Assembly: GCA_013044195.1 (NCBI GenBank)
Contig: JABEUV010000011.1
Coordinates: 10,577 to 74,576, forward strand
Length of the DNA: 64,000 bases
Direction: 5' to 3'
Origin: Elusimicrobiota bacterium
GTDB taxonomy: Bacteria; Elusimicrobiota; Elusimicrobia; UBA1565; UBA9628
The notes below the pieces were generated by a model. That model did not search any database. It saw only the letters and a program-made list of their open reading frames with translations, and was not told the origin of the DNA. Shown here one piece after another: positions 43,562 to 64,000 of the stretch (positions are counted from its first letter, which is position 1; each line of letters starts with the position of its first letter). A program made the position numbers and the translations under genes.

Positions 43562-43600
43562 TATAATTCCGGTTCTAGCCCGCACCCAGGAGAAACCATC

Positions 43601-44500: not shown

Positions 44501-44501
44501 G

Positions 44502-46367: not shown

Positions 46368-46737
46368 GGGACGACAGACTTACGTCGCGCTGCCGGACAG
46401 GCAGGCGCTCAACAAGACGCTGCTGTTCGCCAAAGACGCGCCTACCGCTGCGGGGCAGCCGGCGCGGGTGTATGTGCGCGCGCTCCGGGCCGCGCTGAGG
46501 ATGACGCAAGCACAGCTTGCGCGGCGAGCCGGGGTAGCCAAATCGCACGTGGCGCTCATCGAAGCCGGTACCGCGAACGTCGGCGTCGAAACGCTGCGCA
46601 AGGTCTTCGACGCGATGTTTTGCGACCTTCTGGTCATCCCTAAGCCGCGCAAAAAACCGACGCAGGCGCTGGCGGAGCGCGAACTCGAACGTCTGAGGGA
46701 GCCGCGATATTACGAAAAGCGCGGACCCTGGGATTGA
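46366..46737 (+). CDS. XRE-family (Cro/C1-type HTH) transcriptional regulator
   Basis: LRMTQAQLARRAGVAKSHVALIEAG helix-turn-helix. Confidence 0.75.
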   Translation: MGRQTYVALPDRQALNKTLLFAKDAPTAAGQPARVYVRALRAALRMTQAQLARRAGVAKSHVALIEAGTANVGVETLRKVFDAMFCDLLVIPKPRKKPTQALAERELERLREPRYYEKRGPWD

Positions 46738-46751
46738 GGTAGAATATCGCC

Positions 46752-47702
46752 ATGAATGAGGCATTCCTGGCCGCGGCGCTGGCGGTTTTCCCGGGCGCGG
46801 ACCGGAATATGGCCTTGCCCGATCCGCCGCCCTTGCCGCCGGCGTGGGTCCAGGGCACGTTCGCGGCCGAAGACGGCACGCCGCTGAACTACGAATACCG
46901 TCCCGGCAGCGGCCCGGCCGTGGTGCTGGTGCACGGGCTCGGCATCGGCGCGGACGGCTTCGACGGCTGGCGCGGCTTCTTCGCGGGGCGGCCGCTGATG
47001 ATCTTGGAGCGGCGCGGCTACGGCTCGCCCATGGGCTTGGTCGACGCGACCGACGTGGGCGCCGTCAACCAGGCCGACGTCTCCGCGGCCGTCGACGAGG
47101 CTCTGCGTCTGGACGGCGGCCAACCCGTCGGCGTGCTCGGTTACTCGCTGGGCGCGCTCCTGCTGACCGCGCCGGACCCCGCGCGCGTGCGCTGGCTGGC
47201 GCTGGTCTGCCCGGGCGTGCCGGGCATGGCCGCCGACCTGCCGGCGGCCGAACAGGCCCTGGCCGCGCAGACGCGCTACTGGTATGGAGTGGCGAGCGCC
47301 GGCGGAACGGCCGCGCGGGATTCCTGGCTCATGTCGGTCGTCGCACCGGGAGTCCTGGAACTGGCGACGACCGCGCGCGGGCTGGGCCTCTCGACGGCCG
47401 CCGACGAGGTGACCGCCGATGCGGCTTCGCCCGATTTTCTCAACCTCTACACCGAGGAGTCTCTCTGGGCATACGCCCAGACTCACGGCTTTACGCCCAA
47501 CCCCGGCGTGCCGGTGTTCGTCGGCTACGCCGAGAATGACCTTGTCGTGCCCCCGGCGGCCGTCCAAAGCCGCGTCGGACGGCTGGAATCCCAGGGCGCG
47601 CACGTCAGCGTCGCGCATTGGCCCGGCGACCACCTCGACGCTCTCGCCCATCCGGGACTGGTGCGCTCCGCGCTTGAGTCCTTCGACGCAGGAACTCCAT
47701 GA
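46752..47702 (+). CDS. Alpha/beta-fold hydrolase (possible thioesterase/esterase)
   Basis: VVLVHGLG oxyanion region, nucleophile elbow GYSLG, C-terminal His region (WPGDHLDALAHP). Confidence 0.7.
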   Translation: MNEAFLAAALAVFPGADRNMALPDPPPLPPAWVQGTFAAEDGTPLNYEYRPGSGPAVVLVHGLGIGADGFDGWRGFFAGRPLMILERRGYGSPMGLVDATDVGAVNQADVSAAVDEALRLDGGQPVGVLGYSLGALLLTAPDPARVRWLALVCPGVPGMAADLPAAEQALAAQTRYWYGVASAGGTAARDSWLMSVVAPGVLELATTARGLGLSTAADEVTADAASPDFLNLYTEESLWAYAQTHGFTPNPGVPVFVGYAENDLVVPPAAVQSRVGRLESQGAHVSVAHWPGDHLDALAHPGLVRSALESFDAGTP

Positions 47703-48643
47703 GCCAAAAAGTCTGCGCGCTGTTCGCCGGCCAGTCCGTCCAAGAAACCGGCATGGGCGTCGAATTGCTCAAGCGCCCCACCGCGCGCGCCGTCATCGAG
47801 CGCCTGAAGCCCTCCCTCGGCCAAGACCTGGAGGCCTTGCTGACGACGACGCCCGACGACGACCTGGCCAAGACCTTCAACGCCCAGCGCGCCATTCACG
47901 CCTCCCACGTGGCGCATTGGCTGACTTGGCGCGCGGCTCATCCGGAAGCGGAGCTTGACGGCGCGATCGGGCATTCGATGGGCGTGGTCGCGGCCCTGGT
48001 CGCCGCCGAGGCGCTCACCGTCGAGGACTCCGGCGTCTTCATCGCCGCCCGCGCGAAGGCCTTCGCGGACTGCTGTGCGGCGTTCTCCGAGCCCATGGGC
48101 CTGGCCGCGGTGAGCGCCGACGACTTCAACGAGGTCGCGCAGTCCGTCAATGAGGTCCCCGGGGTTTCCGTCGCTCTGTGGAACACCGTGGGCCGAGGCA
48201 CGCTCGGAGGCACGCTCGCGGCGCTGGAGGCCTATGCCGCCAAGGCGCGCGACGAGGACTGGCCGGTCAAGGTCAAGATATTGAAGGTGGAAGGCCCCTA
48301 TCACACCGCCGCCTTCGCGCCCGCGCAGGTCCCCCTGGGCGCCGTGCTGGCGCGACTGGACGTCCGGCCGCCGAAGGTCCCCGTGTTCATGGGCACCTCC
48401 GGCAGCGCGGAGACGGACCCGGCGCGCATCAAGGAACTGCTGGCCGAGCAAACCGTCGCCTGCGAACGGCATCTCGACGCGGTACGCGCGGCCTACGCCG
48501 CGGGATGCCGAAACTTCGTCGAGGTGTCCTTCAAACCCCAGCCCGTGACCTGGCTGGCGGAGCAGTTGATCGGCGAGGACGGCGCGAAACTGCCCGGCGT
48601 CGAGGGCCGCGCCGTTCCCACCTCGGAACTCCAGGCAGGATGA
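47699..48643 (+). CDS. Malonyl-CoA:ACP transacylase-like acyltransferase (FabD-like AT)
   Basis: ALFAGQSVQETGMG and GHSMGVVAAL (GHSxG). ATGA-coupled to the hydrolase gene. Confidence 0.7.
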   Translation: MSQKVCALFAGQSVQETGMGVELLKRPTARAVIERLKPSLGQDLEALLTTTPDDDLAKTFNAQRAIHASHVAHWLTWRAAHPEAELDGAIGHSMGVVAALVAAEALTVEDSGVFIAARAKAFADCCAAFSEPMGLAAVSADDFNEVAQSVNEVPGVSVALWNTVGRGTLGGTLAALEAYAAKARDEDWPVKVKILKVEGPYHTAAFAPAQVPLGAVLARLDVRPPKVPVFMGTSGSAETDPARIKELLAEQTVACERHLDAVRAAYAAGCRNFVEVSFKPQPVTWLAEQLIGEDGAKLPGVEGRAVPTSELQAG

Positions 48644-49436
48644 TCGACATCATATGGATGATTCGGCTCTCCCAGCCCCGTAAATCCAGAACGCGGCCGA
48701 CAAGACGCACGGGCTCGCCGTAGCTGTCGCGGCACTTGATGGCGTAAATCGGCTGCTCGGCCGGATAGCTCGCCTCGATACGCCCGCAAAACTCACCGAA
48801 CCTGCCTCGGGAAACTATTGTGTCTACGCCGAAGAGGATGACGGGCATTTCTGGAGCAAGAACTTTCGGATTGTTGACGGTTTCGTCGGCGTTGCAGACG
48901 AGAAATCCATTCGATAAGACCCCCATCAAGTCGCTGGCCTCCACGAGAATATGGTCGACGGCCGACACCCCGGGAAGAACGCGGCACTCGTAACCGTTCT
49001 TTCGGCAGTAATTCAGGACATGCAAGCCGTCGCTGAAGACGGCCGGGTGTCCATAGGTCACATATGTCACTTTCTTGCCCTTCTTCAATTCGACGCAGAT
49101 GTCGCGAGCGACGCTTTTGATCTTCTCCTCGTTGCCGAGGGACTCGAATTTCGCGCCATGGAACAAACGAACGTCGACGCAGAAAGTCCGAAGAAACGGC
49201 AGCAACCGCTCTCCGTCTCCGTGCATATAGAAAAGAATCTCGCTGTCCTTGAGCGCCTGGATCGTCCCCAACGTGACATCTTGAGGCCGATCAATTCCCA
49301 CGCCGCATACGGTCAAACATCCGCCCGCGACCGCCGCCTTCGGATTGGACGCGCGCACTCGCCGACTCACAGCAGAAACCCCATGACGTTCTCTCCCTTC
49401 ATGACCCACGCCAGAAAAAATCCAAGAAAAATCCAA
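48531..49436 (-). CDS. Tetrapyrrole-methylase-superfamily SAM-dependent methyltransferase (start uncertain; a GTG near 49358 is possible)
   Basis: N-terminal CLTVCGVGIDRPQDVTLGTIQALKDSEILFY (GxGxGxxD..LT..A...L..AD.(L)Y) and a second motif VTYVTYGHPAVFSDG. 3' end overlaps the FabD-like gene on the opposite strand. Lower GC than neighbouring genes. Confidence 0.45.
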   Translation of the reverse strand: MDFSWIFSGVGHEGRERHGVSAVSRRVRASNPKAAVAGGCLTVCGVGIDRPQDVTLGTIQALKDSEILFYMHGDGERLLPFLRTFCVDVRLFHGAKFESLGNEEKIKSVARDICVELKKGKKVTYVTYGHPAVFSDGLHVLNYCRKNGYECRVLPGVSAVDHILVEASDLMGVLSNGFLVCNADETVNNPKVLAPEMPVILFGVDTIVSRGRFGEFCGRIEASYPAEQPIYAIKCRDSYGEPVRLVGRVLDLRGWESRIIHMMSIILPGVPRWERRGPRRRAVSRRPRRSTAPPARSRAGV

Positions 49437-50755
49437 AAAGCGAACGAAATAGTCGGAGTCAACGGTATCATTTCGACGCCGTTACGGGCGCACCATTCCT
49501 GGAGCGCCTGCGCTTGGCTGGGCGTCAATCCATCCGCATAGAGGCGCGAAAAATGCTCCTCGAAGAATTCGGCGTCCTGCCGCAGACGTTCGATAAAGCC
49601 GGGCGCCAACACGGAATACGACGAGACTTCGCCGATGGCGCTCGGGAGAACTTCATGGTCCCAAAGGCGGACCAGGACCAAGCTCAATCCAAAAAATACC
49701 CCCATCGCGGCAAGCGCCAGAATCGTGCGCTCGACGGCATAAGGAACGGCGATGACCCGCATCACCGCCGCGCACGCCCCGCCCAGAAGCGGCAGCGCGA
49801 TCGTCAAGACGGAAGCGGCGCCGACGCTGCCCGTCAAGACCAGCATCGTCCACCGCGTGCCCAATTGGATGAACATGCTGAATATCGAGAGATCGAGTAA
49901 TATCCGCCACACATCCATCCAATGCGTCGGCGGACGAATAACGACCAACGCGACGCCCAAGACCCCGAGGAGCAACCGGCAATAATTGGCCCCGATCACT
50001 ACGGAAAGTCGGTTCCATAAGACGAATACGACCCCCCAAAACATGGTGAAGAGTATCGGCGAGCTAAAGAAGCCTTTTAAGTAATAGGAAAACAGCGACA
50101 GGGCGAGCATCTGCAGCCCCTGCAGAGCCGCAAAGCCCGCGAAAGCGCCCGGCTGTGCCGCGATCGAACGAATGGATCGAGCCGCTTTTATGCGCCAGGA
50201 CTCGGGCGTACCGATTGCTTCGCGCAGGCTGTCGTAAATAAAATGAACTGCTTTTCCCCATCCCAACTGAATAAAAAAATGGCGTCGATGGCTCAGGCGC
50301 GTTGAATAAACATAATGCAGCGCCCTCAGGAAGACCGCGATGCTCGCCGGGATAAACGTGTTGATCAGCGCGATCAGAAACAACCGCCGCCCATAACTAG
50401 GCCCCCCCAAAGTCGTCAGCGGGTACAAGGCGGCAAGCAGAAGAAATAATTTCGCATCGCCCGCGGGCCAGACGCCGAACCACCATAAAGCGCCCGCCGC
50501 CGTCGCGCATAGAAAAACATTCGACAAGGCCTCCCGGTAAAATATTCCTCGGGGGAACACCTCGATCCAGCGCAATCCGCCGAGGATGCTCATCACCAGC
50601 AGGATCAAATACGCGCACGCGATGATCCTGGCGCTGGAACGCAGGAATTGATTGCGTATTTTTTGATGGGTGTAGTCGTTCCAACCCACCACGATCCAAA
50701 GATAAAAGAAAAAGGCGGCCATCGCGGCCTGTACGGCCGTCAATGCGGCGCTCAT
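49367..50755 (-). CDS. Polytopic membrane protein with prepilin-peptidase (A24)-like GDAKL motif, function unknown
   Basis: About 12 hydrophobic helices. WWFGVWPAGDAKLFLLLAALYP resembles the second catalytic-Asp motif (GGDVKL) of type IV prepilin peptidases. Start set at Met 50755 (ATGA-coupled to the upstream TPR gene). Lower-GC gene. Confidence 0.4.
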   Translation of the reverse strand: MSAALTAVQAAMAAFFFYLWIVVGWNDYTHQKIRNQFLRSSARIIACAYLILLVMSILGGLRWIEVFPRGIFYREALSNVFLCATAAGALWWFGVWPAGDAKLFLLLAALYPLTTLGGPSYGRRLFLIALINTFIPASIAVFLRALHYVYSTRLSHRRHFFIQLGWGKAVHFIYDSLREAIGTPESWRIKAARSIRSIAAQPGAFAGFAALQGLQMLALSLFSYYLKGFFSSPILFTMFWGVVFVLWNRLSVVIGANYCRLLLGVLGVALVVIRPPTHWMDVWRILLDLSIFSMFIQLGTRWTMLVLTGSVGAASVLTIALPLLGGACAAVMRVIAVPYAVERTILALAAMGVFFGLSLVLVRLWDHEVLPSAIGEVSSYSVLAPGFIERLRQDAEFFEEHFSRLYADGLTPSQAQALQEWCARNGVEMIPLTPTISFAFWIFLGFFLAWVMKGENVMGFLL

Positions 50756-53700
50756 GCGGCCAAACGCGACTCGCCTGCAAAGAGGCCTGGAGCGACGCTC
50801 ATCGCCCGCTCCCTGTATTTTGCGGCGGCGCTTGCGCGCCGCAGCTTCTCCAGGCACGCCGACGCGCCGATCAGCGCCCACGGATCCGCGGCGTCCAGCG
50901 ACAGCGCCTTCATAAACGACGATAAGGCCGGCCGCCAACGCTTTTGTTCGCAGTAGGCCCGCCCTTGCCACGTCCACGCATCTTGATAAGCGTCATGGGC
51001 GCCGAGGACTTGCGCGAATTCCGCGAGCGCTCCGCGGACGTCCCCACGAACCAGCTTCAGTTCGCCCAGCCACGCGCGCGCCCAGTAACAGTCGGCGTCG
51101 AGCTCGACGGCATGATCCAAATCGCGCCGCGCGGCCTCCCAGCGTTCTCTCTTTCGATGAATTCCTCCGCGCCACGCATAAACCCAGGCGTAGCGGGAAT
51201 CTCGCCAAACATGAGGCGGATCCGCTCCGAGAAAATCATAAGCGCAGGAGCAGTTCCCATCAAGTTTGACGGCGCGCCGCACCAGGTCGAAACCGGCTTT
51301 GATTCGTCCCAGTTCGCGGTTGATCTCCCCGCAAAGCGCGACGGCCCAGGCGCACGTCGGCTCAAGATCGATCGCCGCGCGCGCGGCCGCCTCGGCCTCC
51401 CGCAGACGCCCGTCCCTGCGCAGCGCGTCGGCCTCCCAGCCGCGGGCTTTGGCGTCGCTCGGGTCGAGACGCGCTGCCCGACGAAAATCCAACAATGCGC
51501 CCGCGCTGTCCCCATTCTGCCGGTGCGCCTTCCCCCGAACGACATAGGCCCACGCAAGCTCCGGCTGCGCCGCGATGGCGTCCGTCGCCGAGGCAACCGC
51601 CTCGGGAAGGCGTCCGAGATTACGAAGCGCTTCGCTCGCGAGCATGTGGGCGGGCGCGGGGTCATCCGGTCTCAGTTTCAAGGCCGACAGCGCGTCATCC
51701 AAGGCGCCACTGAAATCGCCTGAAATACGGCGGCCCGCCCCGCGCTTGCACCAAAGATCGGGCCGTCGCGGCGAAAGTTCGAGCAGGCGATCAAGATCGG
51801 CGACATGCTTGTCATAGTCGCCCGAGCAGCGGTAGGCCTCCGCGCGAAAGCGCAGGGCTTCTTCGCAACTACCGTCGACGCGAAGGATTTCATCGCAGGT
51901 CGCCGCCGCCTCCAAATGAAGCCCATTTTCCGCCGACCGGCGAACGTGCCGCAGGGCTTTCAAGACCAAATCGGCAGACGCCGCCGCGCCCAGCTTGGCG
52001 AACCTCCGCGCGACGCGCAGTTCCTCCCGCGTCAAGCGATCCGCCCCGCTCAATGCCTGCGCGAAATTCGAACGCGCCTCTCCCCATCGTCCCTCGCGTT
52101 CGTTCAGGACTCCAAGCCGGAAGTTGACGCGCGGATCGTCTCGTTGCGCCGCGAGCGCCCGCTCCAAATCCTCTCGAACACCGACGTCGTTATTGCATCG
52201 CTGCCGCAGAGCCGCGCGCGCAAGCATGGCGGCGACATGATTGCGGTCGATGGCCAATGAAGCCCCGAAGTCCTCCTCGGCCTCTTTTGCCAAGCCCAGG
52301 CGATCTTCGGCTTCCCCTTTCCAAAGGAAAATCCATGACGTCATTCGATTCAATTCGACGGCGCGCCTCAAGTCCGTCAGCGCGCCGGCCGAGTCCCCTA
52401 AAAGATGGCGAGCGCGGCCGCGCCACGCATAAGCGTAGGCATACGAAGGCTCAAGCCTCAACGCTCGATCGCAATCCTTGAGAGCGCGTCTTATCGATCC
52501 CAATTCCAGCAACGCGCCGCCTCGCCAAGCCCGCACCCAGCCCAGTCCTCCGTCAAGCGCGAGCGCTCGATCCATATCCGCGACGGCGCCCGCGTAATCG
52601 GCTTTCCGGAGTTTAGCCTCGCCTCGCCATGCCCACGCCCACGAGTTTCGCGGGTGGGCTCGTATTTCCTCGTCCAATTGCGCCGACGCGGCTGCGAACT
52701 GATCGGGCGTGCCGCCGCACCAAGAATATTTCGGATCAAGGCGATGGGCCGCCTCTAATTTTTCCAGAGCCGCGCCGACGTCGCCGAGCTGGCGAAGCGC
52801 GAGGGATTGTTCTTGGAGCGTCCAAGCATGCCGGGGGTCCAAAGACGAAGCCAGCGCAAAGTCGACCAGCGCCTGCGCGGGCCGGCCCAAACCCCTTTTT
52901 GCGCCGCCGCGCCACGCATAACCCAGTTCGTAGTCCGGGTCAAGCCGCAAGCCTCGATTCAAATCGCAAAGTGCTCCCTTCTGATCGCCCCGCAGCCGCT
53001 TGATCTCGCCGCGCCAACAGAGTATCCAGCCGCATGAAGGCTTCAGCAACACCGCCCTGTTCACCGCTTCCATCGCCGCCGACGAGTCGCCCTGCATCAA
53101 CCGCGAGCGCGAAAGATACGCCCAGCCGTAGGCGCAGTCCGGCTTGAGCTCCACCGCCTTCTCCAGATCCCGTCGCCCGCCGTTTTGGTCGTTGACCTCC
53201 GGCGCGCGCTTGTAATCGCCGCGGTACACATACATCCAATATGCGCGCGGATGCCGCGCCAAATAGCGCGACACCGCCATGATTTTCTCCGCGACGGTGA
53301 CCGCTCCGGAGCTTCGGCCTCCGGCGTTCTGAAAATAACCGACTCCTTCGTCGGCATAAACGGCGCTTTCGCAATCGGAAAGATATCCGCGCAGATCGCC
53401 GCGCTCGATGCGGCAGGCGCTTCGAAACGCAAGCAAGAACGCGGTGTCGGGCTCCTCGGCGAGCGCCCGGTCGAAATAGCCCTCCGCCTGTTTTCTCTCG
53501 CCCGCGTTGTAAAGCGCCATGCCCGCGGCGACCAGGGCCGGAACGCAGCGCGAATCAATTTCCAGGGCCTTCTGCAAATCAGCCAGCGGCCGGCGGACGT
53601 CTGCGGAACGGGCGTCCATGAATTCCACGGTTTTCGCGATTCCTCGGAAAGCCCGCCACAGAGCCCGGCGGGGCGCCAGCGCGATCGCCCGGTCTATGCC

Positions 53701-54045
53701 GTCGTACGACCGAGAGGCTCCAGGTTCGCACGGCTCCGCGGTCCAACGCCATGCCCACGCCGCGTCGCAGCCGCGATCCAAGCGCAACGCCGCGTCGAAT
53801 TCCCTCCGGGCTTCGCGGGCGCGTCCCAAATAATGAAGGATCCGCGCTCGCGCGACGCATTCCTCCGCGGACGATCCGCGCGAACGCTCGAGGGCGCGCT
53901 CATAGCGCGGTCGATAGCGGACCCCGTGACGCCGCAGAATATAGCGCGAGGAGCGCGACACCAGCTTCGACTGCCAGAGCGCGATGAGGCGATCAGCCCC
54001 CAGCTCGCGCAGGAGCGCCGCAGCACTCGATCCCATTTCAGCCAT
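50752..54045 (-). CDS. Giant TPR-repeat protein (~1100 aa, WRG-type TPR family)
   Basis: More than 20 TPR-like 34-aa units with a recurring AWAWRGEAK...A..D..RALALDP pattern. Start trimmed to Met 54045 to avoid overlap with the radical SAM gene. Confidence 0.75.
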   Translation of the reverse strand: MAEMGSSAAALLRELGADRLIALWQSKLVSRSSRYILRRHGVRYRPRYERALERSRGSSAEECVARARILHYLGRAREARREFDAALRLDRGCDAAWAWRWTAEPCEPGASRSYDGIDRAIALAPRRALWRAFRGIAKTVEFMDARSADVRRPLADLQKALEIDSRCVPALVAAGMALYNAGERKQAEGYFDRALAEEPDTAFLLAFRSACRIERGDLRGYLSDCESAVYADEGVGYFQNAGGRSSGAVTVAEKIMAVSRYLARHPRAYWMYVYRGDYKRAPEVNDQNGGRRDLEKAVELKPDCAYGWAYLSRSRLMQGDSSAAMEAVNRAVLLKPSCGWILCWRGEIKRLRGDQKGALCDLNRGLRLDPDYELGYAWRGGAKRGLGRPAQALVDFALASSLDPRHAWTLQEQSLALRQLGDVGAALEKLEAAHRLDPKYSWCGGTPDQFAAASAQLDEEIRAHPRNSWAWAWRGEAKLRKADYAGAVADMDRALALDGGLGWVRAWRGGALLELGSIRRALKDCDRALRLEPSYAYAYAWRGRARHLLGDSAGALTDLRRAVELNRMTSWIFLWKGEAEDRLGLAKEAEEDFGASLAIDRNHVAAMLARAALRQRCNNDVGVREDLERALAAQRDDPRVNFRLGVLNEREGRWGEARSNFAQALSGADRLTREELRVARRFAKLGAAASADLVLKALRHVRRSAENGLHLEAAATCDEILRVDGSCEEALRFRAEAYRCSGDYDKHVADLDRLLELSPRRPDLWCKRGAGRRISGDFSGALDDALSALKLRPDDPAPAHMLASEALRNLGRLPEAVASATDAIAAQPELAWAYVVRGKAHRQNGDSAGALLDFRRAARLDPSDAKARGWEADALRRDGRLREAEAAARAAIDLEPTCAWAVALCGEINRELGRIKAGFDLVRRAVKLDGNCSCAYDFLGADPPHVWRDSRYAWVYAWRGGIHRKRERWEAARRDLDHAVELDADCYWARAWLGELKLVRGDVRGALAEFAQVLGAHDAYQDAWTWQGRAYCEQKRWRPALSSFMKALSLDAADPWALIGASACLEKLRRASAAAKYRERAMSVAPGLFAGESRLAA

Positions 54046-54053
54046 CGCGCCTA

Positions 54054-55049
54054 TCAGCCGTCCCGCAGAAGGCGCCGCCGCAGGGCGTCGGCCGACTTCC
54101 GACTGGGACGCAGCTCGCCGTCGCCGTGGAGAAGTACGTAGTCGCGCCGCGGCCCCGGGCAGAGTTCCACAAGCGTACAGCCCGTGCAGCGCGGGGTCTG
54201 GGCCTTCTCGTTGATGTAGCGCCGCTCGAGGCGCGCAAGCTTCCATGCGTCGATCGAGTCCTCCTCGAAACCCGGGGTCGCGCACAGCGGGAAACCGTCG
54301 GTCATGAAGCGGATGCCGCAGCGGCGCAGCCGGGCCCACGACTCCAGAAGATAAGGCTCCATGTCGGTCAGCGTCGGCACCAGGAATTTTCTCTGCTTGA
54401 CGTAGCCGAGGACCTTCACGATGTTGAATTCGACGAAGAAAATGCCCGGGAACTCCTCCCGAACGAACCGCGCGTAGTCGGGCATGATCTTGTAATTGAA
54501 CTTATTGACGACGACGTGCAGGCGGACCTTCGCGCCGCCCGCCGTTTCGATCAGATTCTTGACCGCCTTCACGCGCCGGTGAAAGTATCCCCGCGTCTGG
54601 GTGATCGCGTCGTAGAGACGGTCTATGTGCGCCGGGAAATTCACGTTAAAGACGTCAAGGCCGGCCGTGACGAGCTCTTCGATGCGATCCGTGTTCTCGA
54701 ACACCGCCGCGTTCGTGCACAGAACGGTCTCGCGCACGCCGTTTTCCTTCGCAAAGCGCACCCATTTCGGCAGGTCCTTCGAAAGCGTCGGCTCGCCCCC
54801 CTCGAAGGAGATCGTGTGCTTGTTGGCCAGTATCAACCGGCGGATGTCGTCGTCCGAGGTGAGCCGGTATTCATTGACCGAGGAGCAGAAAACGCAATCG
54901 ATATTGCAATGCGTGTTCAGGTAAATGTTCGGGTCGGTCTCCGGATAATACCAATCCGGTTTCCCGCCCGACTCGTCGAGGGGAACACAGCGCTCGACAT
55001 GCTCAAGCGGGCCCCGAGTTCCGCCGCCGTCGCCGATTTTCTCGTTCAT
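54054..55049 (-). CDS. Radical SAM enzyme with C-terminal auxiliary Cys cluster (SPASM/twitch-like)
   Basis: CNIDCVFCSS (Cx3Cx2C). Glycine-rich ISFEGGEPT SAM-binding motif. C-terminal PLCATPG...RCTGCTLVELCPG Cys cluster. ATGA-coupled to the upstream TPR gene. Confidence 0.8.
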   Translation of the reverse strand: MNEKIGDGGGTRGPLEHVERCVPLDESGGKPDWYYPETDPNIYLNTHCNIDCVFCSSVNEYRLTSDDDIRRLILANKHTISFEGGEPTLSKDLPKWVRFAKENGVRETVLCTNAAVFENTDRIEELVTAGLDVFNVNFPAHIDRLYDAITQTRGYFHRRVKAVKNLIETAGGAKVRLHVVVNKFNYKIMPDYARFVREEFPGIFFVEFNIVKVLGYVKQRKFLVPTLTDMEPYLLESWARLRRCGIRFMTDGFPLCATPGFEEDSIDAWKLARLERRYINEKAQTPRCTGCTLVELCPGPRRDYVLLHGDGELRPSRKSADALRRRLLRDG

Positions 55050-56788: not shown

Positions 56789-58203
56789 GACTTTTTTTGC
56801 GCAAGCTCGGCGGGCGCATCGCTCCGGACCGTCGGCGACCAAAAGCGCGTCAAGGCGTTCTCCTTCAGAACCGGCCGGCCGGCCGCGATCTTCTCGTTGG
56901 CCGCGGCCAGCAGGCGACGCAGCGCGGGAACCGGCGTCTTCCACGCCAAAGCCGGCCACCGCATGACCGCCTCTCGCCGCACGCCGTCCGCCTCGGCCGG
57001 CGTGAGCAGCCGGCTCAAGCGGTCCCAGCGCTCACGCGACCCCGGGGCGTCCTGGGCGCTCGACAGCAAAGACCACAAGGCCGCCTCCCGCAAGTTGCGG
57101 CGCGTCCCTCGACCGGACTCAAGCAACGCGGCCAGCCTTGACTGCGCCGGCGGCGAGCCGCGCTCGGCGACGCGCCGGAACCATTTGGCGGCCTCGCCGA
57201 TGCTGCGCCGGACGCCGTGCCCGTGAAGATAGCTTTCGCCGATCATGATCTGTGAGTGCGTGTCGTTCTTCCACGCCGCCTGCCAATACAGGCGGAAGGC
57301 CTCGTCGTAGTCGCGAGGAACTCCAATCCCGTTGTAATACATGTAGCCCAGGCGCCATTGGCTTTTTGTGTTTCCACGCAGCGCGGCCAGCCTCAGCCAT
57401 TTGACCGCCGCCTCATCGTCTTTCGGCACCCCAAGCCCCTCGTGATACAGGGCGCCCAACAGCAGTTGAGCCCGCGGCTTGCCCGCCGCGGCCGACCGCC
57501 GACACCAGCGCGTCAGCTTCGCCCAATCCGCGTCGCTCACGCGCCCAATAAGGGCCGCTAAATTGTCGCTTGCCTGCTCCTTGCGATAAAGGGCTCCGAG
57601 AATGTACCACTTGGCCGCCTCGAACAAGTCCCGAGGCACGCCGGCGCCCACGGAGTATATATGGCCGAGATTGCACATGGATGGGCCGTTTCCCTGTTCG
57701 GCCGCGGCGCGATGCCAGCGGACCGATTCGGAAAACTCGTGGCGGTGGAAATAAAGCAGTCCCAGGTTGCTCTGAGCTTTCGAGTCCCCCAGTTGCGCGG
57801 CGCGAAGCAGGCAGCGCAAGGACAGGCCGTAGTCGCAAGCGACGCCCAGCCCGTGCGCGTACATGTAGCCGAGATTGGCCAGGGCCGCCGACTCGCCGCG
57901 CTCCGCGGCAAGCCGATACCAGCGCGCCGCCTCAAGGTAATCGGGGCCGCCATCCTGGCCGAAATAGGACATCCGGCCGAGACAGAGCGCGGCGCGCCCG
58001 TTTCCGCCCTCGGCGGACCGGCGATACCACGCCGCCGCAGCACTCCGGTCCAGGGGCCCGCCCAGCCCCTCGTCGCCGAGATAACCGAGACGCAACTGCG
58101 CCGCGGCGTCGCCGGCCTCCGCGCGCTTCACGAGAGCCCGGCGGGCGGCCCGCTCGCGGGCGGGCGGCAGGAATTCCGGCGCCCCCGAGAACGCGCGATC
58201 CAT
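56785..58203 (-). CDS. Sel1-like repeat (SLR) protein
   Basis: At least nine Sel1 units (AQSNLGLLYFHRHEFSESVRWHRAAAEQG, AQLLLGALYHEGLGVPKDDEAAVKWLRLAALRG, etc.). The long Arg-rich N-terminal extension of the raw ORF was rejected. Start set at Met 58203. Confidence 0.7.
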   Translation of the reverse strand: MDRAFSGAPEFLPPARERAARRALVKRAEAGDAAAQLRLGYLGDEGLGGPLDRSAAAAWYRRSAEGGNGRAALCLGRMSYFGQDGGPDYLEAARWYRLAAERGESAALANLGYMYAHGLGVACDYGLSLRCLLRAAQLGDSKAQSNLGLLYFHRHEFSESVRWHRAAAEQGNGPSMCNLGHIYSVGAGVPRDLFEAAKWYILGALYRKEQASDNLAALIGRVSDADWAKLTRWCRRSAAAGKPRAQLLLGALYHEGLGVPKDDEAAVKWLRLAALRGNTKSQWRLGYMYYNGIGVPRDYDEAFRLYWQAAWKNDTHSQIMIGESYLHGHGVRRSIGEAAKWFRRVAERGSPPAQSRLAALLESGRGTRRNLREAALWSLLSSAQDAPGSRERWDRLSRLLTPAEADGVRREAVMRWPALAWKTPVPALRRLLAAANEKIAAGRPVLKENALTRFWSPTVRSDAPAELAQKKS

Positions 58204-58289
58204 CGCCGGCTGAACGAACGCGAGAAAGATATTCCCTTCGGGACGCGGCCGAGATCGGCCCGCCCGCGAAACCTCGGAAGGCACGGCGT

Positions 58290-59306
58290 TCAGCGGGAGG
58301 AGCGCGCGCCGGCTCGAACCAGCGGGCCGAAGCTCGCCCGTAATTCGGCGCATCGCTTCGACAAGGCCTCGATCTTCCGTCGTCGGCTCACGGCCTCGTC
58401 CGAATCCTCCAAGCCGGCGAGCCCGGAGAGAATCGACCGCAGATCCTCTCGCGTTTGATCGAGAGCGGCGATCAAGCCGGCGCGATTCGTCGCCGTTTCC
58501 TGGGTCATCTTGCTGCAATAGCCGTCGCGCAGCGGGGCGGAATAGCGCTCGCAACTCCCCGCTTTTTGGCCCCGCAGCGCAAGACACAAGCCGGAGGCGC
58601 GGCACTGCGACGAATCTCCATTCTTCACTGCCGCCCAATAGGCGCGCAGCGTCATGCAACTGAACCCCAGAGCCCAATCCGGCTTGCCCAGCGCGACGCA
58701 CTCCGTCTTGCTCTCCCGGCCCATGTTCACGCTGTCTTGCGCCAGAATCTTCGCTTCCTCCCAGCCCGTCAGCGGCGAAAGCTTCGCCGCTCGCTTGCGG
58801 GGATCGCCCGCGTTGTCGACGTAAACATCGCAGAAGCCGGGAGCCTCGAACCGGGCCACGGACGAACAGAGCCGCTTGGCGCCGGCCGGGTCGGACGCCG
58901 CCGTCGCCAGGACCTTGCCGAGGGTCAGGTGCTGGAGAATCGGCGTGCAGGAGCCGCTCAGCGGCTTCGACTCGTCGCAAACGGCGGAGTCGCCGGTCAA
59001 AAGGGCCCGGCACACCAGATATTTCGCCGCGGTCTGCGAGGCCGCTTCGTCCAGCTCGGAATATAAATTAGCGACATAGCGGGGGCTCGTGAGCATGGCC
59101 TCGACGGTGAAGGAGCGAAGGCAGCCGGCTTTCGTCATTTTTGCCGACTTCAACTCCCGAGCCTGAGCCTCCATGGCGGCGACATGAGCCGCCGCCGAAG
59201 CGATCATCACGTCCATTTTTTTCAGGCTGACCGCTTCCGCCGGGCAGGAGCACGCCGCCCAAAATGCCGCGACCAGCGCCGCGACGACTCTCTTCTTCCC
59301 TTTCAT
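58290..59306 (-). CDS. Secreted Cys-rich protein (about 19 Cys), hypothetical
   Basis: Signal peptide MKGKKRVVAALVAAFWAACSCPAEA. Regularly spaced Cys pairs (CDESKPLSGSC, CSSVARFEAPGFC, CRASGLC...SC...YC). Confidence 0.5.
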   Translation of the reverse strand: MKGKKRVVAALVAAFWAACSCPAEAVSLKKMDVMIASAAAHVAAMEAQARELKSAKMTKAGCLRSFTVEAMLTSPRYVANLYSELDEAASQTAAKYLVCRALLTGDSAVCDESKPLSGSCTPILQHLTLGKVLATAASDPAGAKRLCSSVARFEAPGFCDVYVDNAGDPRKRAAKLSPLTGWEEAKILAQDSVNMGRESKTECVALGKPDWALGFSCMTLRAYWAAVKNGDSSQCRASGLCLALRGQKAGSCERYSAPLRDGYCSKMTQETATNRAGLIAALDQTREDLRSILSGLAGLEDSDEAVSRRRKIEALSKRCAELRASFGPLVRAGARSSR

Positions 59307-59367
59307 GGCATCTCCGTTGCAAGCCTTTCGGAAATAGTACAAAATCTTGGCGCGCGCTCCGCGAATA

Positions 59368-61728
59368 TCAACCTTCCCCGCGCGCGCCGGAATCCTCGAT
59401 GGCCCGCGCCGCCAGGAGGTCCGCCTTCGCGTCCGCCAAAGCCCCCAGAAGCATGGCCGCCTTCGCGCGCACGATCAGCGCCTCGGATTGCCGCGGATTG
59501 ATCCGCAGCGCGGCCGCGGCGTCGGCGCGCGCGCCAAACGCGTCGCCGCTGGCGAGGCGAAGCTTGGCCCGCAGCAGCCGCACGCGATCCTCGATCATGG
59601 CGCGCTCCACGCCGGACTCGAACTCCTCGCGCAGCGCCTCAAGGCGCGAGCCCTCGGCCGGGCTCCTCGACAGGGCGCACAGACGCAAGGCCTTGTCGAG
59701 ATCCGCCGCGGCGTCGGCTGGGCGGCCGAGGTGGCGCCGGGCCTCGCCGCGCAGCGCGTAGGTCCACGGTCCCGGAGCTCCCGCGGAAATCGCGCGATCA
59801 AGCGAGGCTTGCGCGGCGGCCGGATCGCCGCTGCGCAGTTCGGCCTCTCCGCGGCGGAAGTGCCCCCACGCGTCGTCCGCCCTTGGAACGGGCCCAGGAG
59901 GCGTCGGAACGTCGAGGGCCTGAGTCCATTCGACCGCGCCGAGCACGGCCAGGTCCTTGAGAAGGCGAAAAACCTGCGCGTCCAGGACGTCGCGGGGCAA
60001 CGGTGAGCGCCGCGACAACTCGCGCTTGATCGCGCCGACCGAACGTTTGCCGTCCGTCAGCGCGAGCGCGAGGGCATACGAACGAGGCAATATCCGGCGC
60101 GGATTGGCCGCGTCGCCGTCGGCGTCGAGGCCTTCGGCCTTGACGATGCGGTAGCGTCGCGCGGGCAATAGCCGACCGTCCCCGGAGACCGGCAGAAACG
60201 TCGTCTGCTCCTCGATTCTCTTGGCCAAGCGAGGGATCCAGGAATCCGGGATTTCACGGCGCGCGGCCTCGTCCTCGGCGCGGCGCAACCCCTCGTCGCG
60301 CGACGGCTCGGCCTTCAAGAACCCGGTCTCGACGACGGCGAGAATCTGCCGCGTCCAGTTCTTCAGTTCCAGCTTGGTGCCTTCCCACTGCCAGGAATGC
60401 TCGGTTCCGCTGGAGCCGAAGAGCAGGGTCTGGGAGGTGTAGGCGCGCTCGAAATAGTAGGTCAGCCCGGCCGCGACGGCCACGAAGGCGGTTTTGTCAT
60501 CAAGATCGATCGGCGACGCCGCGCCCAGCGCTTTGCGCGCCTCGGCCCGCCATGCGCGCGCGTTCGGATCGTGACGGTACCAAAAGCGTACGAGCGTCGA
60601 GAAAGAACCCGCGACCTCCCCACAGAAGCGGTCGTAGTCGTTCCACAGCAATCCGCGAACCTCCGCGTCGGCCTCGCGGCGCGAGGACAGCCACGTGTAG
60701 GCCGCGCGATGCCCCGACAGATGCGCCATCATGACGCCCGACGACAGCAGCGGGTCGAGAAAGAACGCCGCGTCGCCCGCGGCCAGCCAGCCCTCGCCGC
60801 AGGCGCGTGCGTTGCGGTAGGACCAGTCGGCGGCCGTGAAAAAATCCTTGCCCGGAGCGCGAGGGTCCACGCCGGCCAGCAGTTGCGCGCCGTCAAGCAG
60901 CGGCGCGATCTCCGTGCACCGCCCCAGCGCCTCGAAGAAATACGCGCGGAAATCCTTGCCCCGCGGGTGGGACTTCACGAACGAAGCCTTGGAGACGAGT
61001 CCGACCGAGACCATCTCCCGCGAAAGAGGAATATACCAGAACCAGCCCTCCGGCACGGAGCAGATGAAGATTTTGGTCTTGTCGGGATGTCCCGAGAACT
61101 CGAACTTCCACTTCGCGCCCTTGTAGTAGGCGTAACCGGCCGTGTTCTTGAGCTCCGGGTCGAACTCGCGCACGCCGCGCTGCGCCGACAGAAATCCGGA
61201 CTGCCCCGAGCAGTCGGCCAGCGTGCCGCACCGCAGCGTGCGCCGGCGTCCGCCCTTCTCGACGACCACGCCGACGAAGCGCCCGTTCTCCTCGACGGCG
61301 GAGAGCGCGCGCCAGCCGAAGCGGACTTCCGCGCCAAGCTCGGCGGCGTGGTCGAGCAGGATTTTATCGTACTTCGAGCGCAGAACCTGCCAGGAGAACT
61401 CCGCGTCGAGCATGCGCCCATACTTCTTGACCATCTCCAGATTCAGGTTGTTGAAGTCCGCGTCCCACGGCGCGCGCTCGTCGCCCCAGACGAAAACGAC
61501 GCCCATCTTTCGCGGGAATCCCCCCGCGTCGATCTTGTCCTGCACGCCGAGTTCCTTCAAGACGGGGATCGCCCCCGGAAGAAGCGACTCGCCGACGTGA
61601 TGGCGGGGAAACTCGTCCTTCTCCAAGACGAGTATTCGCGCCGTCGAATCGTGCTTGCGCGCGATGCCCGCCAGCGTGCTTCCCGCGGGGCCGCCGCCCA
61701 CGACGATCATATCCCAGGTTGTCGTCAT
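59368..61728 (-). CDS. Flavin-dependent halogenase-like FAD monooxygenase fused to C-terminal TPR repeats
   Basis: N-terminal FAD fold (IVVGGGPAGS), halogenase-signature GWFWYIPL (WxWxIP) and distal FxxPxxSxG-like FLDPLLSSGV. C-terminal ~280 aa of TPR (WTYALRGEARRHLGRPADAAADLDKALRL). Confidence 0.65.
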   Translation of the reverse strand: MTTTWDMIVVGGGPAGSTLAGIARKHDSTARILVLEKDEFPRHHVGESLLPGAIPVLKELGVQDKIDAGGFPRKMGVVFVWGDERAPWDADFNNLNLEMVKKYGRMLDAEFSWQVLRSKYDKILLDHAAELGAEVRFGWRALSAVEENGRFVGVVVEKGGRRRTLRCGTLADCSGQSGFLSAQRGVREFDPELKNTAGYAYYKGAKWKFEFSGHPDKTKIFICSVPEGWFWYIPLSREMVSVGLVSKASFVKSHPRGKDFRAYFFEALGRCTEIAPLLDGAQLLAGVDPRAPGKDFFTAADWSYRNARACGEGWLAAGDAAFFLDPLLSSGVMMAHLSGHRAAYTWLSSRREADAEVRGLLWNDYDRFCGEVAGSFSTLVRFWYRHDPNARAWRAEARKALGAASPIDLDDKTAFVAVAAGLTYYFERAYTSQTLLFGSSGTEHSWQWEGTKLELKNWTRQILAVVETGFLKAEPSRDEGLRRAEDEAARREIPDSWIPRLAKRIEEQTTFLPVSGDGRLLPARRYRIVKAEGLDADGDAANPRRILPRSYALALALTDGKRSVGAIKRELSRRSPLPRDVLDAQVFRLLKDLAVLGAVEWTQALDVPTPPGPVPRADDAWGHFRRGEAELRSGDPAAAQASLDRAISAGAPGPWTYALRGEARRHLGRPADAAADLDKALRLCALSRSPAEGSRLEALREEFESGVERAMIEDRVRLLRAKLRLASGDAFGARADAAAALRINPRQSEALIVRAKAAMLLGALADAKADLLAARAIEDSGARGEG

Positions 61729-63854
61729 TTGAGAGCAGTCCCGCCGCCCAGGTCGAGAATGCGCGCGCGCAGCCAGCGCCCCGCCGCGTCCTCCGGATCC
61801 AGCGCCGCGTCGAGAGAGCGCGCGGTCTCCTCAAGCGCGCCGCGCGCGTCGCCGCAGGACAACTTCAGCCACGCGAGTACTCGATAAAATCCGGCCTCAC
61901 GGGAGGCCGGCCTTTCCTGCGCGCGCGCCAGGGCTCCGCGCGCGTCCGCGCGCAGCAGCGCCGCCGCGCACCCGCGCAGGCCGCAAGACCGTGCCGTCCG
62001 CGCCAAGGCCTCCGGCGCGAAGGACGCCGCCGGATCTTCGACGCGGCGCAGCGCAAAGGCCCTGCGCGGATCGGGCCTCCGGCCCGCGCGGCGGCACGCC
62101 AGAACGTATAAAGCCAGCGGCTGCCGAGGATTTCGGCGCAGCGCCTCTTCAAGCGCCCGCGACGCCTGCCGGCCGCGGCCCGCACGGGCGAGAAGAAAGC
62201 CCTCCATGGCCGCGTCCGCGTCGGAAGGGCCGCCGCGCCCGTACGCGGCCAGAGCCTCCTCCCATGCGCCGCAGCGCGCCAGGGACTCGGCCAGCCGCAG
62301 GGAAATCCAACGGTCCCGCGGGTGGAGTTCGAGCGCGGCGCAATAGGCCGCCGCGGACTCGACTGGACGACCGACCTCCAGCAAGGCCCGCCCTCGAAAC
62401 GCGTGCGCGGGACCGCAGTGCGGCTGCAGGCGCAGGGAACGCTCGAGCTCGGCCAGCGCCGCGCGGACGCGGCCCTGCTCGAGCAGGCACGCTCCCCGTC
62501 CCGCGTGCGCCCAGGACAGCCGCGCGTCCAGACGCAGAGCCGACTCGAAATCGGCCCGAGCCTCGCCGACGAGGCCTAGGCGCCGGCGTGCCTCGCCGCG
62601 CCAAAGACGCGCCCACGCGTCCCGCGGAGCGAGCGCGACGGCCCGATCAAGATCGTCGATCGCGCGCCAATAATTCTGCAGCAGAAGCTCCGTCTGGCCC
62701 CGCCAGGCCAAGGCCCACGCGGCCCGCGGCCGCCGCTCCAGGTAGCGGTCCAGATCCCGCCGCGAGCGCAGAGCCGCGGGATTGGGGTGAGACATGCTGA
62801 TGCGATGCTCGATCCAGACGCCGGAGCGGTCGACGGCCGCGGCTTCCCGCATGATCCGCCCCGCCTCGTCCCAGCGCTTGAGGCTCATTAGCGCGCCCGC
62901 CAAGGGATACAGCGTCGTCGGGTAGTACGCATTGAGGGCGCGCGCCTTCATCAGTAGCGCTGCGGCACGACGCGTCTGCCCCTGCTCGGCCAAGGACACG
63001 CCCAGCCACGACCAGCCGCGGTCGTAATCGGGCAGAAGCTTGATCGACGCCCGCAAATCCGCGAGAGCCCGCGGCGCGCGTTTGAGGACGAACATGGCCC
63101 GGCCGCGCCAGGAGAGGGCGAAGCCCGAGCGCGGCGCGAGCGTCAGCGCCCGATCAAGATCGGCCACGAGCGTGCGGTCGCGCAGGTCCGCCTTCGCGCG
63201 CGCCAAGAAGAGCAAGGGCAGTTCCCCCGACGCGTCGAGCCGCGCCGCTTGGCCGAACGCCGACACCGAGGCGCGAAACTCCGCCAGATACCACAGGCAT
63301 ACGCCGCGAAACACGAGCGGCCAGGACCAGTCCGCAGCAAGCGAACTCGCCGCGTCGAATTGCGCGATCGCGCGCACGTAGCGACGCCGCATCTCCCAGG
63401 CCATCCCCAAACCCATGCGCGCCCAGAGCTGATCGCCGTCGAGCGCGAGCGCGGCCTCAAAATCCGCGATGGACGCCGCTCCAAGGCGCCGCGAGCCCCA
63501 GCAGCGCTCGGACCGCAGGAAGCCCCTCAAGATCAGGAAGGCGGGCTGCCGCGGATCGAGGCGGATCGCCTCGTCCAGACGCCCCCGCGCCGCCTCGGAC
63601 CAGCCCGGCCCCGTCGGCGGCCGCGCGCGGGGCCGGCCGGTCTCCCCGCCGGGGCCGAGGCGGAACTCGCGGCCGATGCGCCGCAGTTCGCCGAGGCCGC
63701 GCAGATCGTTCTGCCGATAAAAAAGGAGAGAGTGAGCGATGTAGCCGCGAAAGATCTCCGCAGCGAAAGTTCCGGAGCCTTCCGCGAAAAATGCGTCGAG
63801 CGGGTCAGGCTTGGGGACCAAGAAGGGCCTCCGCCCGCTTGCGCTGCTCTTCAT
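61725..63854 (-). CDS. TPR-repeat protein (WRG-type family)
   Basis: 709 aa. Repeated units (WALAWRGQTELLLQNYWRAIDDLDRAVALAP, WARLWRGEARRRLG...). ATGA overlap with the halogenase gene. Confidence 0.7.
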   Translation of the reverse strand: MKSSASGRRPFLVPKPDPLDAFFAEGSGTFAAEIFRGYIAHSLLFYRQNDLRGLGELRRIGREFRLGPGGETGRPRARPPTGPGWSEAARGRLDEAIRLDPRQPAFLILRGFLRSERCWGSRRLGAASIADFEAALALDGDQLWARMGLGMAWEMRRRYVRAIAQFDAASSLAADWSWPLVFRGVCLWYLAEFRASVSAFGQAARLDASGELPLLFLARAKADLRDRTLVADLDRALTLAPRSGFALSWRGRAMFVLKRAPRALADLRASIKLLPDYDRGWSWLGVSLAEQGQTRRAAALLMKARALNAYYPTTLYPLAGALMSLKRWDEAGRIMREAAAVDRSGVWIEHRISMSHPNPAALRSRRDLDRYLERRPRAAWALAWRGQTELLLQNYWRAIDDLDRAVALAPRDAWARLWRGEARRRLGLVGEARADFESALRLDARLSWAHAGRGACLLEQGRVRAALAELERSLRLQPHCGPAHAFRGRALLEVGRPVESAAAYCAALELHPRDRWISLRLAESLARCGAWEEALAAYGRGGPSDADAAMEGFLLARAGRGRQASRALEEALRRNPRQPLALYVLACRRAGRRPDPRRAFALRRVEDPAASFAPEALARTARSCGLRGCAAALLRADARGALARAQERPASREAGFYRVLAWLKLSCGDARGALEETARSLDAALDPEDAAGRWLRARILDLGGGTALK

Positions 63855-64000
63855 TGAGAAGATACGGGAAGTCCTTGAGAACGGCGCGGTAGGAAGCGAC
63901 CGCCTCTTCGGCGCGGCCCAGACGCGCCAGCGCTTCGGCCTTGGCGACGAGCGCGCGTCCCACGTTGGGGGCGAACGACAGGCACTGCTCGGCCGCGGCC
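63805..64000 (-). CDS. C-terminal end of a further TPR-like protein (5' end outside window)
   Basis: Minus-strand frame open to the window edge (…AAAEQCLSFAPNVGRALVAKAEALARLGRAEEAVASYRAVLKDFPYLLNEEQRKRAEALLGPQA*), TPR-like. Confidence 0.4.
   Translation of the reverse strand, partial: AAAEQCLSFAPNVGRALVAKAEALARLGRAEEAVASYRAVLKDFPYLLNEEQRKRAEALLGPQA

Follow-up and report, generated by a model that had tools for sequence, protein, structure and literature searches.

A 64,000-nt stretch of a metagenome-assembled genome from an uncultured Elusimicrobiota bacterium (contig JABEUV010000011.1; hereafter the window) carries, on its minus strand between positions 48531 and 64000, a run of genes that combines tetratricopeptide repeat (TPR) proteins with a halogenase, a radical S-adenosylmethionine (SAM) enzyme, a methyltransferase, a secreted Cys-rich protein and a polytopic membrane protein. 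We propose, at roughly even odds (about 0.5), that this locus belongs to an Elusimicrobia-specific cluster family for the post-translational modification of a ribosomal peptide or secreted protein, in which TPR modules are coupled to the tailoring enzymes around a FlaK-like protease, and that it is related to the His-Xaa-Ser (Hxs) systems. No published description of this gene combination was found in the literature. The initial annotation, made from the letters alone, had envisaged a machine that modifies and exports or processes a protein or peptide; the first half of that idea is strengthened by enzyme families that act on peptides and proteins, and the export half lost ground, as no exporter gene was found in the operon.

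The run comprises nine complete open reading frames (ORFs), designated A to I, and the 3′ end of a tenth gene:

63805–64000, minus strand: 3′ end of the tenth gene, a TPR gene (685 amino acids (aa) on a longer contig; mapped from L002, one of the Logan loci L001 and L002)
61725–63854, minus strand: A, TPR protein of 709 aa, or 698 aa if the TTG at 63821 is the start
59368–61728, minus strand: B, predicted flavin-dependent halogenase with a C-terminal TPR region (Trp_halogenase profile)
58290–59306, minus strand: C, secreted Cys-rich protein of 338 aa with a signal peptide and 15 Cys, in no Pfam or NCBIfam family
56785–58203, minus strand: D, Sel1-repeat protein of 472 aa with seven repeats (Sel1 profile)
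55046–56788, minus strand: E, TPR protein of 580 aa (TPR families)
54054–55049, minus strand: F, predicted HxsC-like radical-SAM enzyme of 331 aa (Radical_SAM profile)
50752–54045, minus strand: G, TPR protein of 1,097 aa (TPR_2 profile)
49367–50755, minus strand: H, polytopic membrane protein of 462 aa (fold, motifs and transitive homology to A24 proteases)
48531–49370, minus strand: I, predicted borosin-type SAM methyltransferase with a TP_methylase fold (TP_methylase profile and PDB ranking)

Five junctions are closed by 4-nt start/stop overlaps, as ATGA at A/B, D/E (56785/56788), E/F and G/H and as GTGA at H/I (49367/49370), and the remaining intergenic gaps measure 8–86 nt. Terminator-like sites were at background (22 observed against 18.2 ± 5.3 expected), and every one lay within coding sequence. 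With these five overlaps and no intergenic terminators, A to I are predicted to form a single operon. The ten-gene run, the ATGA overlaps at A/B, E/F and G/H, and the single transcription unit that had been read from the letters were therefore upheld, the D/E and H/I overlaps being new and the operon reaching past the window. A 48.7-kb Logan contig covering the region holds three further TPR genes upstream of A; because it stops within the first of them, the available sequence does not reach the operon's 5′ end. The two genes earlier remarked on for their low GC content, H and I, indeed stand at 0.57 against 0.62–0.72 for the other operon genes, in agreement with the mosaic identities described below.

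To place the operon among its relatives, we scanned genomes with the H family, which yielded 77 loci, mostly from Elusimicrobia, 37 of them carrying full-length H homologues (compared loci are cited by their L numbers). A full-length G orthologue (36–64% identity, ~1,070–1,100 aa) adjoins H in 18 of the 37, many of the others being without upstream DNA, and in 27 of the 37 H is followed by J, a ~450-aa peptide β-hydroxylase of the α-ketoglutarate (aKG)-HExxH type that passes model TIGR04267 at 104 bits against a cutoff of 40. The usual order at these loci is H, J, an uncharacterised protein of ~210 aa, a QueC-like PP-loop protein and a convergent FabD, FabD being syntenic with H in 21 of the 37. 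The ~210-aa protein is sometimes fused to the next gene, and the module from H to the QueC-like gene recurs in L019, L020 (for example L020:8457–12664), L021, L024, L027–L029, L031–L033, L036 and others. Neither J nor the gene designated K has a copy in the window, where I occupies the hydroxylase position. A QueC-like paralogue does occur there (25929–26969, plus strand), 51–56% identical to the copies that follow H elsewhere; lying 22 kb from the operon and adjoining glutamyl-tRNA reductase and cytochrome c assembly genes, it looks unrelated beside these heme genes and was rejected as an operon member.

Gene content around G and H differs markedly among the most informative loci:

L089: same gene order as in the window, with identities of 75% (A), 82% (B), 37% (C), 70% (D), 68% (E), 84% (F), 64% (G), 56% (H) and 40% (I); extra genes are an uncharacterised 268-aa gene with an HxD-like motif, an additional TPR gene and an aKG-HExxH hydroxylase
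L012: A-B-G-H-I only, with identities of 66% (A), 77% (B), 43% (G), 39% (H) and 39% (I)
L008: four WelO5-like genes, a B-like halogenase, F, a C-like protein, two B12-dependent radical-SAM genes, G and H, with identities of 76% (F), 64% (G), 54% (H) and 33% (B)
L090: an adenosine phosphosulfate (APS) kinase/sulfotransferase, TPR genes, a C-like protein, G, H and I
L016: two genes resembling the formylglycine-generating enzyme (FGE) and a GDSL–TPR fusion

Comparison across these loci points to a conserved core of G and H, usually joined by J, with the other genes as variable plug-ins. Co-localisation of homologues in other genomes, on which the initial annotation had made its proposal depend, is thus found, in the same order in L089 and in part in L012, L008 and L090, whereas the trio of radical-SAM enzyme, halogenase–TPR fusion and Cys-rich protein that it had singled out is not conserved as a set. 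By sequence identity the mosaic origin it suspected is also real, the A-B pair resembling L012 and F-G-H resembling L008. Such plug-in variability, combined with mosaic identities, is characteristic of tailoring-enzyme clusters.

Several of these loci have further features of their own. The four WelO5-like genes of L008 (L008:1–3872) are tandem paralogues of iron- and 2-oxoglutarate (2OG)-dependent halogenases or hydroxylases. In L090 the APS-kinase/sulfotransferase fusion (L090:95–1504) heads a G-H-I cluster with neither halogenase nor radical-SAM gene, which suggests sulfation as an alternative modification. The TPR/halogenase/G/H/I block of L012 (1–12128) has a third-position GC content of 0.64–0.72, against 0.74–0.91 in the larger flanking genes (12135–21373), which suggests a foreign composition for the block at that locus; G and H resemble their surroundings in L016 and L026. 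Immediate neighbours of the G orthologue in L016 are two FGE-sulfatase-domain proteins (6918–8579 and 12964–16137, both minus strand), and an ankyrin-repeat Ser/Thr kinase is encoded nearby.

All three modifying enzymes named in the initial annotation passed their profile thresholds, and two of them fall close to peptide- or protein-directed families. Gene F scores 54.8 bits with Radical_SAM (cutoff 29.5), and its best NCBIfam matches, both below cutoff, are HxsC4 (79.5 against 500 bits) and HxsC (73.6 against 267.9 bits); on these profiles and its motifs it is assigned as an HxsC-like radical-SAM enzyme. Its family has 36 members, and its invariant residues comprise CxxxCxxC (C48, C52, C55), GGEP and four C-terminal cysteines (C256, C288, C291, C297) that could hold an auxiliary cluster. 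The SPASM domain for which the initial annotation had proposed a search gave no Pfam match in F. More distant homologues (43–50% identity) are located in clusters of many small radical-SAM genes.

Gene I exceeds the TP_methylase cutoff (60.6 against 27.8 bits), as its earlier label of TP-methylase-like implied, and can be placed more narrowly. Among PDB entries OphMA (5.6e-12) and MroMA (1.8e-10) rank first, dbOphMA also lies ahead, and SonM follows at 9e-6, while tetrapyrrole methyltransferases of the CobA/CysG type reach 7e-4 or weaker; a tetrapyrrole methylase was rejected on this ranking. With an invariant YGHP motif in common with borosin methyltransferases, I is closest to the borosin peptide α-N-methyltransferases of the OphMA/SonM kind. 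The fold and YGHP motif are those of split borosin pathways (SonM/SonA; OphMA-type), from which the operon otherwise differs: I has low identity to the characterised members, ends at the methyltransferase domain plus a read-through tail with no fused core peptide, and has no small conserved ORF nearby, and I-type methylases are instead coupled to the A24-like protease or fused to TPR. Because no cognate precursor is present, either fused or adjacent with a borosin-binding domain, we do not file the operon as a borosin cluster. Borosin clusters with radical-SAM genes (8% of clusters) and with TPR-bearing multidomain proteins have been described (10.1101/2021.12.24.474128). Over 113 nt (48531–48643) the I reading frame runs into the 3′ end of a convergent FabD gene, which gives I an Arg/Pro-rich C-terminal tail of ~27 aa; the L089 and L090 homologues are without this tail, and its cause is probably a stop codon lost at a recombination joint. 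Because the families of I, F, H and J all have characterised members acting on peptides or proteins, we favour a substrate of that kind.

The membrane protein H had been called A24-like, and that label stands on fold, motifs and transitive homology, not on a direct Pfam match. Two catalytic-type aspartates lie in transmembrane (TM) helices, the second in a GxGD-type motif, and the family invariants in 23 members are D27 (D-x3-QKIRN) and WPAGD100AKLF. Shorter relatives bridge the distance to known families: of eight examined, four reach the A24 cutoff of 26.5 bits (26.5–28.0), three fall below it (19.7–23.5) and one gives no match; P0120, a distant match to H, scores 27.1 bits in the A24 profile, and two archaeal relatives pass Arc_PepC. 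Because an H-family profile gave no A24 match against PDB sequences, a fold comparison was needed, and it identified a FlaK-like fold, extended in H by additional TM helices and by a conserved C-terminal domain on the cytoplasmic side. H is accordingly assigned as an enlarged and divergent aspartyl protease of the GxGD (A24) type, with predicted cleavage activity. It shares with FlaK, PilD and TadV/CpaA the two invariant aspartates in TM helices, including GD-x-KL, and its archaeal relatives in radical-SAM/HxS clusters bear an Arc_PepC C-terminal domain; unlike those proteases it is about twice the size of FlaK, has several more TM helices, and is flanked by TPR proteins and peptide-modifying enzymes, not by pilin, archaellin or Flp genes.

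An A24/FlaK fold with both catalytic Asp motifs might also belong to a type IV pilus or secretion accessory locus, with H as a prepilin-type peptidase, the TPR proteins as PilF/PilW-like assembly factors and the enzymes modifying pilins encoded elsewhere. The TPR proteins do give weak, sub-threshold matches to PilW, PrsT and Tgl models, and the position of I beside H recalls PilD, a peptidase and N-methyltransferase in one. Such a locus is nevertheless very unlikely here: no pilin-like N-terminus occurs in the window or around H at the 37 loci whose homologue is full-length, pilin-like ORFs being confined to L083, beside a short H relative; the annotated neighbourhoods showed no gene for a pilus ATPase, a platform protein or a secretin; the matches to pilus families are far below cutoff; and the TPR proteins have no signal peptides, so that they are not outer-membrane pilotins.

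The TPR proteins themselves point to a common design. Signal peptides are missing from A, D, E and G, which consist simply of TPR or Sel1 repeats; A, D and G are classed as cytoplasmic, and the repeat families score well over profile cutoffs (TPR_2 at 86 bits in A and 174 bits in G; Sel1 at 189 bits against 30.7 in D). The WRG-type family proposed from the letters holds for G and A, where W[RK]G recurs at 34-residue spacing seven and three times, respectively; E and B have only a looser aromatic-x-aromatic-R-G form. Orthologues of A in L012 (66% identity) and L089 (75%) both lie directly upstream of the halogenase, and an orthologue of D was found only in L089 (70%). The closest relative of E within L033 is the TPR half of an 826-aa HxsC-like radical-SAM–TPR fusion; TP_methylase–TPR fusions are found in L026, L034 and L037, and GDSL–TPR fusions in L016 and L020. 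Three enzyme types (radical SAM, TP_methylase and GDSL) are therefore fused to the operon's TPR type at other loci, as the halogenase is in B. Because such fusions exist elsewhere, the pairs E-F and A-B and the string G-H-I look like split versions of one design.

These fusions bear directly on the null expectation that paralogous TPR genes simply accumulated and that unrelated enzymes came to lie between them by chance. As that account would have it, these genomes are rich in TPR genes and related loci differ in gene content. It is effectively excluded, however, by translational coupling at five junctions, by orthologous G-H pairing in 18 loci, by the fusion of three different enzyme types to one TPR type, and by the recurrence of the same enzyme families around HxS precursors.

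That recurrence bears on the nature of the substrate. Short H relatives are embedded in many-radical-SAM clusters of Elusimicrobia, Candidate Phyla Radiation (CPR) bacteria and DPANN archaea, and these clusters encode precursors of 70–190 aa with long His-Xaa-Ser repeat tracts, those of Elusimicrobia sharing the leader FLSSEEGKI..DVVKTA.ALGL.G. HxS-repeat precursors were located at L005:1168–1470, L037:9505–9858, L039:5600–5977, L042:9013–9414 and L064:1118–1444, and further loci are L045–L051, L053, L066–L070, L076, L077, L086 and L087. Three loci bridge the two cluster types:

L037: two B12-dependent radical-SAM genes, the precursor, a full-length-type H, a methylase–TPR fusion and an ABC exporter
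L039: radical-SAM genes, the precursor, H and the HExxH hydroxylase J
L064: the precursor, radical-SAM genes, an A24-like gene and a B-like halogenase with a segment resembling an RRE, the recognition element of pathways for peptides made by the ribosome and modified after translation (RiPPs)

Because the operon's enzyme families also flank HxS-repeat precursor genes, a peptide- or protein-directed pathway is indicated, and the system appears evolutionarily tied to Hxs-type radical-SAM maturation clusters. The clusters that combine an HxS precursor, an HxsC-like radical-SAM enzyme and an A24/FlaK-like peptidase look like an undescribed, extended Hxs-like RiPP family.

In the characterised HXS systems, the radical-SAM enzymes HxsB/C mature HxsA, which bears a signal peptide, ahead of its action in the periplasm (Li et al., Nat Commun 2026, PMC13128918); these systems consist of four genes (HxsABCD) with no peptidase, and 99.7% of them are in Pseudomonadota (PMC13128918). 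The operon resembles HXS (TIGR03977, NF038332) in the best family matches of F, HxsC4 and HxsC, and in that relatives of F and H are found in clusters with HxsD and HxS-repeat precursors; C would then be the HxsA analogue. The window differs in having no HxsA-type repeat protein, no match to HxsB or HxsD among the nine operon proteins, and an F far under the equivalog cutoff, and HXS itself has no TPR proteins, halogenase, N-methyltransferase or A24 protease. An HXS-like anti-phage or envelope defence, with C as a periplasmic effector matured by the radical-SAM and other enzymes before export, much as HxsB/C/D mature HxsA, would account for a C that is secreted and fastest-diverging and for a mosaic cluster with low-GC H and I. 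We regard it as unlikely given the missing HxS components, a PADLOC result limited to generic radical-SAM similarity to viperins, and a G/H core whose conserved chromosomal position across the lineage looks housekeeping and not like a mobile defence island.

The halogenase B poses a different question. It scores 88 bits with Trp_halogenase (cutoff 21), and its halogenase domain (aa 1–~400) is followed by a conserved linker and a C-terminal TPR region (aa ~620–786). The motifs GGGPAG at 11, Lys74, WFWYIP at 229 and GDAAFF at 318 correspond to the GxGxxG, catalytic Lys, WxWxIP and GDAAxFxDP signatures of flavin-dependent halogenases, Lys74 aligning with the Lys of the PltA segment fpkKfG; by profile and motifs B is assigned to this class, with predicted activity. 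Its best solved relative is halogenase 8zop (2e-50), then PltA, CmlS and CndH. Between halogenase and TPR lies a segment, LPxxYAxALxLxDGxRSVGxIKxELS, that is kept even in distant homologues; it is putatively PqqD/RRE-like and spans aa ~505–600 (nt 59929–60216). The linker had no match in Pfam; its profile retrieved PqqD 5sxy from PDB at a weak E=0.6, and hhalign gave 70% probability against a PqqD sequence. Flavin halogenases that act on RiPPs, such as MibH, share the flavin adenine dinucleotide (FAD)-dependent family with B, and a B-like enzyme sits within the HxS-precursor cluster L064; B is nearer in sequence to PltA, CmlS and CndH-type enzymes, and its C-terminal TPR and putative RRE-like insert have not been reported in RiPP-associated halogenases. 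The proteusin brominase SrpI is an FAD-dependent halogenase that acts on a ribosomal peptide guided by a recognition region (PMC10858898).

Next to the operon, and convergent with it, lies a cluster resembling type II fatty acid synthesis (FAS-II; 37960–48643, plus strand). Its genes encode an enoyl reductase, ketoacyl synthase (KAS) III, a double FabA, a FabA-like protein, a KAS, a 299-aa unknown protein, an acyltransferase–phosphopantetheinyl transferase (PPTase) fusion, a helix-turn-helix protein, an α/β hydrolase and FabD; FabD and the acyltransferase–PPTase gene are syntenic with the H locus across many Elusimicrobia.

The operon enzymes might accordingly tailor a carrier-bound acyl or aromatic intermediate supplied by this neighbour, the TPR proteins serving only as glue in a small-molecule or lipid pathway. 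The relatives of B, which act on carrier-tethered or small substrates, fit such a pathway, as do the adjacency of the FAS-II-like cluster, the synteny of FabD with H, and the WelO5-like and APS-kinase/sulfotransferase enzymes of related loci, which often act on small molecules. Several observations make it unlikely: the operon has no carrier protein, non-ribosomal peptide synthetase, polyketide synthase or ligase gene; I is nearest to peptide N-methyltransferases, F to a protein maturase, H to a protease fold and J to a peptide hydroxylase family; the same enzyme families lie beside ribosomal HxS-repeat precursors; and the FAS-like cluster is on the opposite strand, in a neighbourhood conserved regardless of the tailoring enzymes.

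If the substrate is a peptide or protein, the best local candidate is C, because it is the sole exported product of the operon, recurs beside G or H and is the fastest-diverging gene (37% identity to its L089 counterpart, most neighbours being at 56–84% and I at 40%). The case for C is plausible by analogy with HxsA, and unproven. It had been described as heavily Cys-rich; it is secreted, and with 15 Cys in 338 aa it is moderately so. A comparison of four loci shows eight invariant cysteines and the motif DPSLCGxSGLCxALxGQ; over twelve members of the family the number of invariant cysteines is ten. Its distribution is narrow: an exhaustive hidden Markov model search of 1.84 billion proteins returned 25 representative clusters, a word-indexed search with the C alignment recovered only the window protein itself and the L008 homologue, and a metagenome scan gave no confirmed loci. 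The model has an all-α fold (pLDDT 87.6) with no match in a fold search against PDB. C-like proteins neighbour G/H in 7–8 loci and stand directly beside G or H in L089, L008, L090, L091, L022 and L033. The N-terminal sequences of seven homologues led us to reject C as a lipoprotein or an A24 substrate. L013 (3320–5374, minus strand) encodes a 685-aa protein whose N-terminal part resembles di-heme cytochrome c peroxidases and whose C-terminal domain matches the C family weakly (E about 1e-7), hallmark Cys motif included. It is equally possible that the substrate is a precursor whose gene precedes the TPR array or lies at another place in the genome.

The pairing of enzymes with TPR also recalls human AspH and OGT, both TPR-guided protein-modifying enzymes, in which a TPR array joined to the catalytic domain contributes to binding of the polypeptide substrate. 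The AspH substrates are Cys-rich EGF domains (PMC6817910), which bring to mind the Cys-rich C. On this analogy, the operon could be part of a lineage-wide machinery in which one TPR-array family targets a changeable toolkit onto C or another envelope protein, followed by FlaK-like intramembrane processing. The toolkit would include the halogenase, radical-SAM enzymes, backbone N-methyltransferase, HExxH and 2OG hydroxylases, sulfotransferase, FGE-like enzymes and SGNH hydrolase, and the product would be a halogenated, methylated, cross-linked exported protein, not a small RiPP. We hold this version to be doubtful; the catalytic domains of AspH and OGT are unrelated to the operon's enzymes, and the operon differs in bringing several chemically unlike enzymes together with one TPR type and a membrane protease.

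The comparisons above show the gene families, the enzyme–TPR fusions, the recurring neighbourhoods and the H fold. Returning to the proposed Hxs-related maturation cluster, we infer a scheme, including its order of events, the adaptor role of the TPR proteins and the identity of the substrate, along the following lines. The cytoplasmic TPR scaffold G would work with the membrane-embedded FlaK-like GxGD aspartyl protease H, and interchangeable tailoring enzymes would be recruited via TPR modules of the same type, supplied either by fusion or from a translationally coupled gene. In the window this toolkit would consist of the halogenase B, with its own TPR and preceded by A; the radical-SAM enzyme F, preceded by E; and the borosin-type α-N-methyltransferase I, coupled to H. 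Binding and modification of the substrate would take place in the cytoplasm, after which H would cleave the substrate's N-terminal region on the cytoplasmic side of the membrane.

A number of observations weigh against this scheme. No precursor peptide gene was found within the 64-kb window, the operon's 5′ end lying beyond it; neither HxS repeats nor the HxS leader motif occur there, and a search of 39 loci for conserved small ORFs near H and G that might encode a precursor returned only shadow ORFs of large genes. C has an ordinary Sec-type signal peptide, not one of the A24 type, and is not found in many G/H loci. H had no A24 match in Pfam PF01478 even at E≤1, nor any NCBIfam match. The nearest solved relatives PltA, CmlS and CndH of B use carrier-bound small molecules, not peptides, and its linker resembles the PqqD/RRE element only weakly. 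The view of TPR modules as adaptors for tailoring enzymes is pure inference. Finally, the comparison genomes are mostly related Elusimicrobia metagenome-assembled genomes, so part of the co-localisation is inherited synteny, and FabD next door is conserved too.

Should the proposed pathway be correct, the maturation of ribosomal peptides or proteins would gain a new organisational principle, in which common TPR adaptors replace or accompany RRE domains and an A24-type intramembrane protease is the processing enzyme. An uncultivated phylum would be added to the known range of borosin-type N-methyltransferases, peptide-linked halogenases and Hxs-type radical-SAM chemistry, and the enzyme–TPR fusions yield testable predictions of TPR–enzyme partnerships. 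More broadly, the system is linked to HxS precursors of Elusimicrobia, CPR bacteria and DPANN archaea, which suggests a much wider distribution and greater complexity for Hxs-like maturation than the four-gene defence system hitherto described from proteobacteria would imply.

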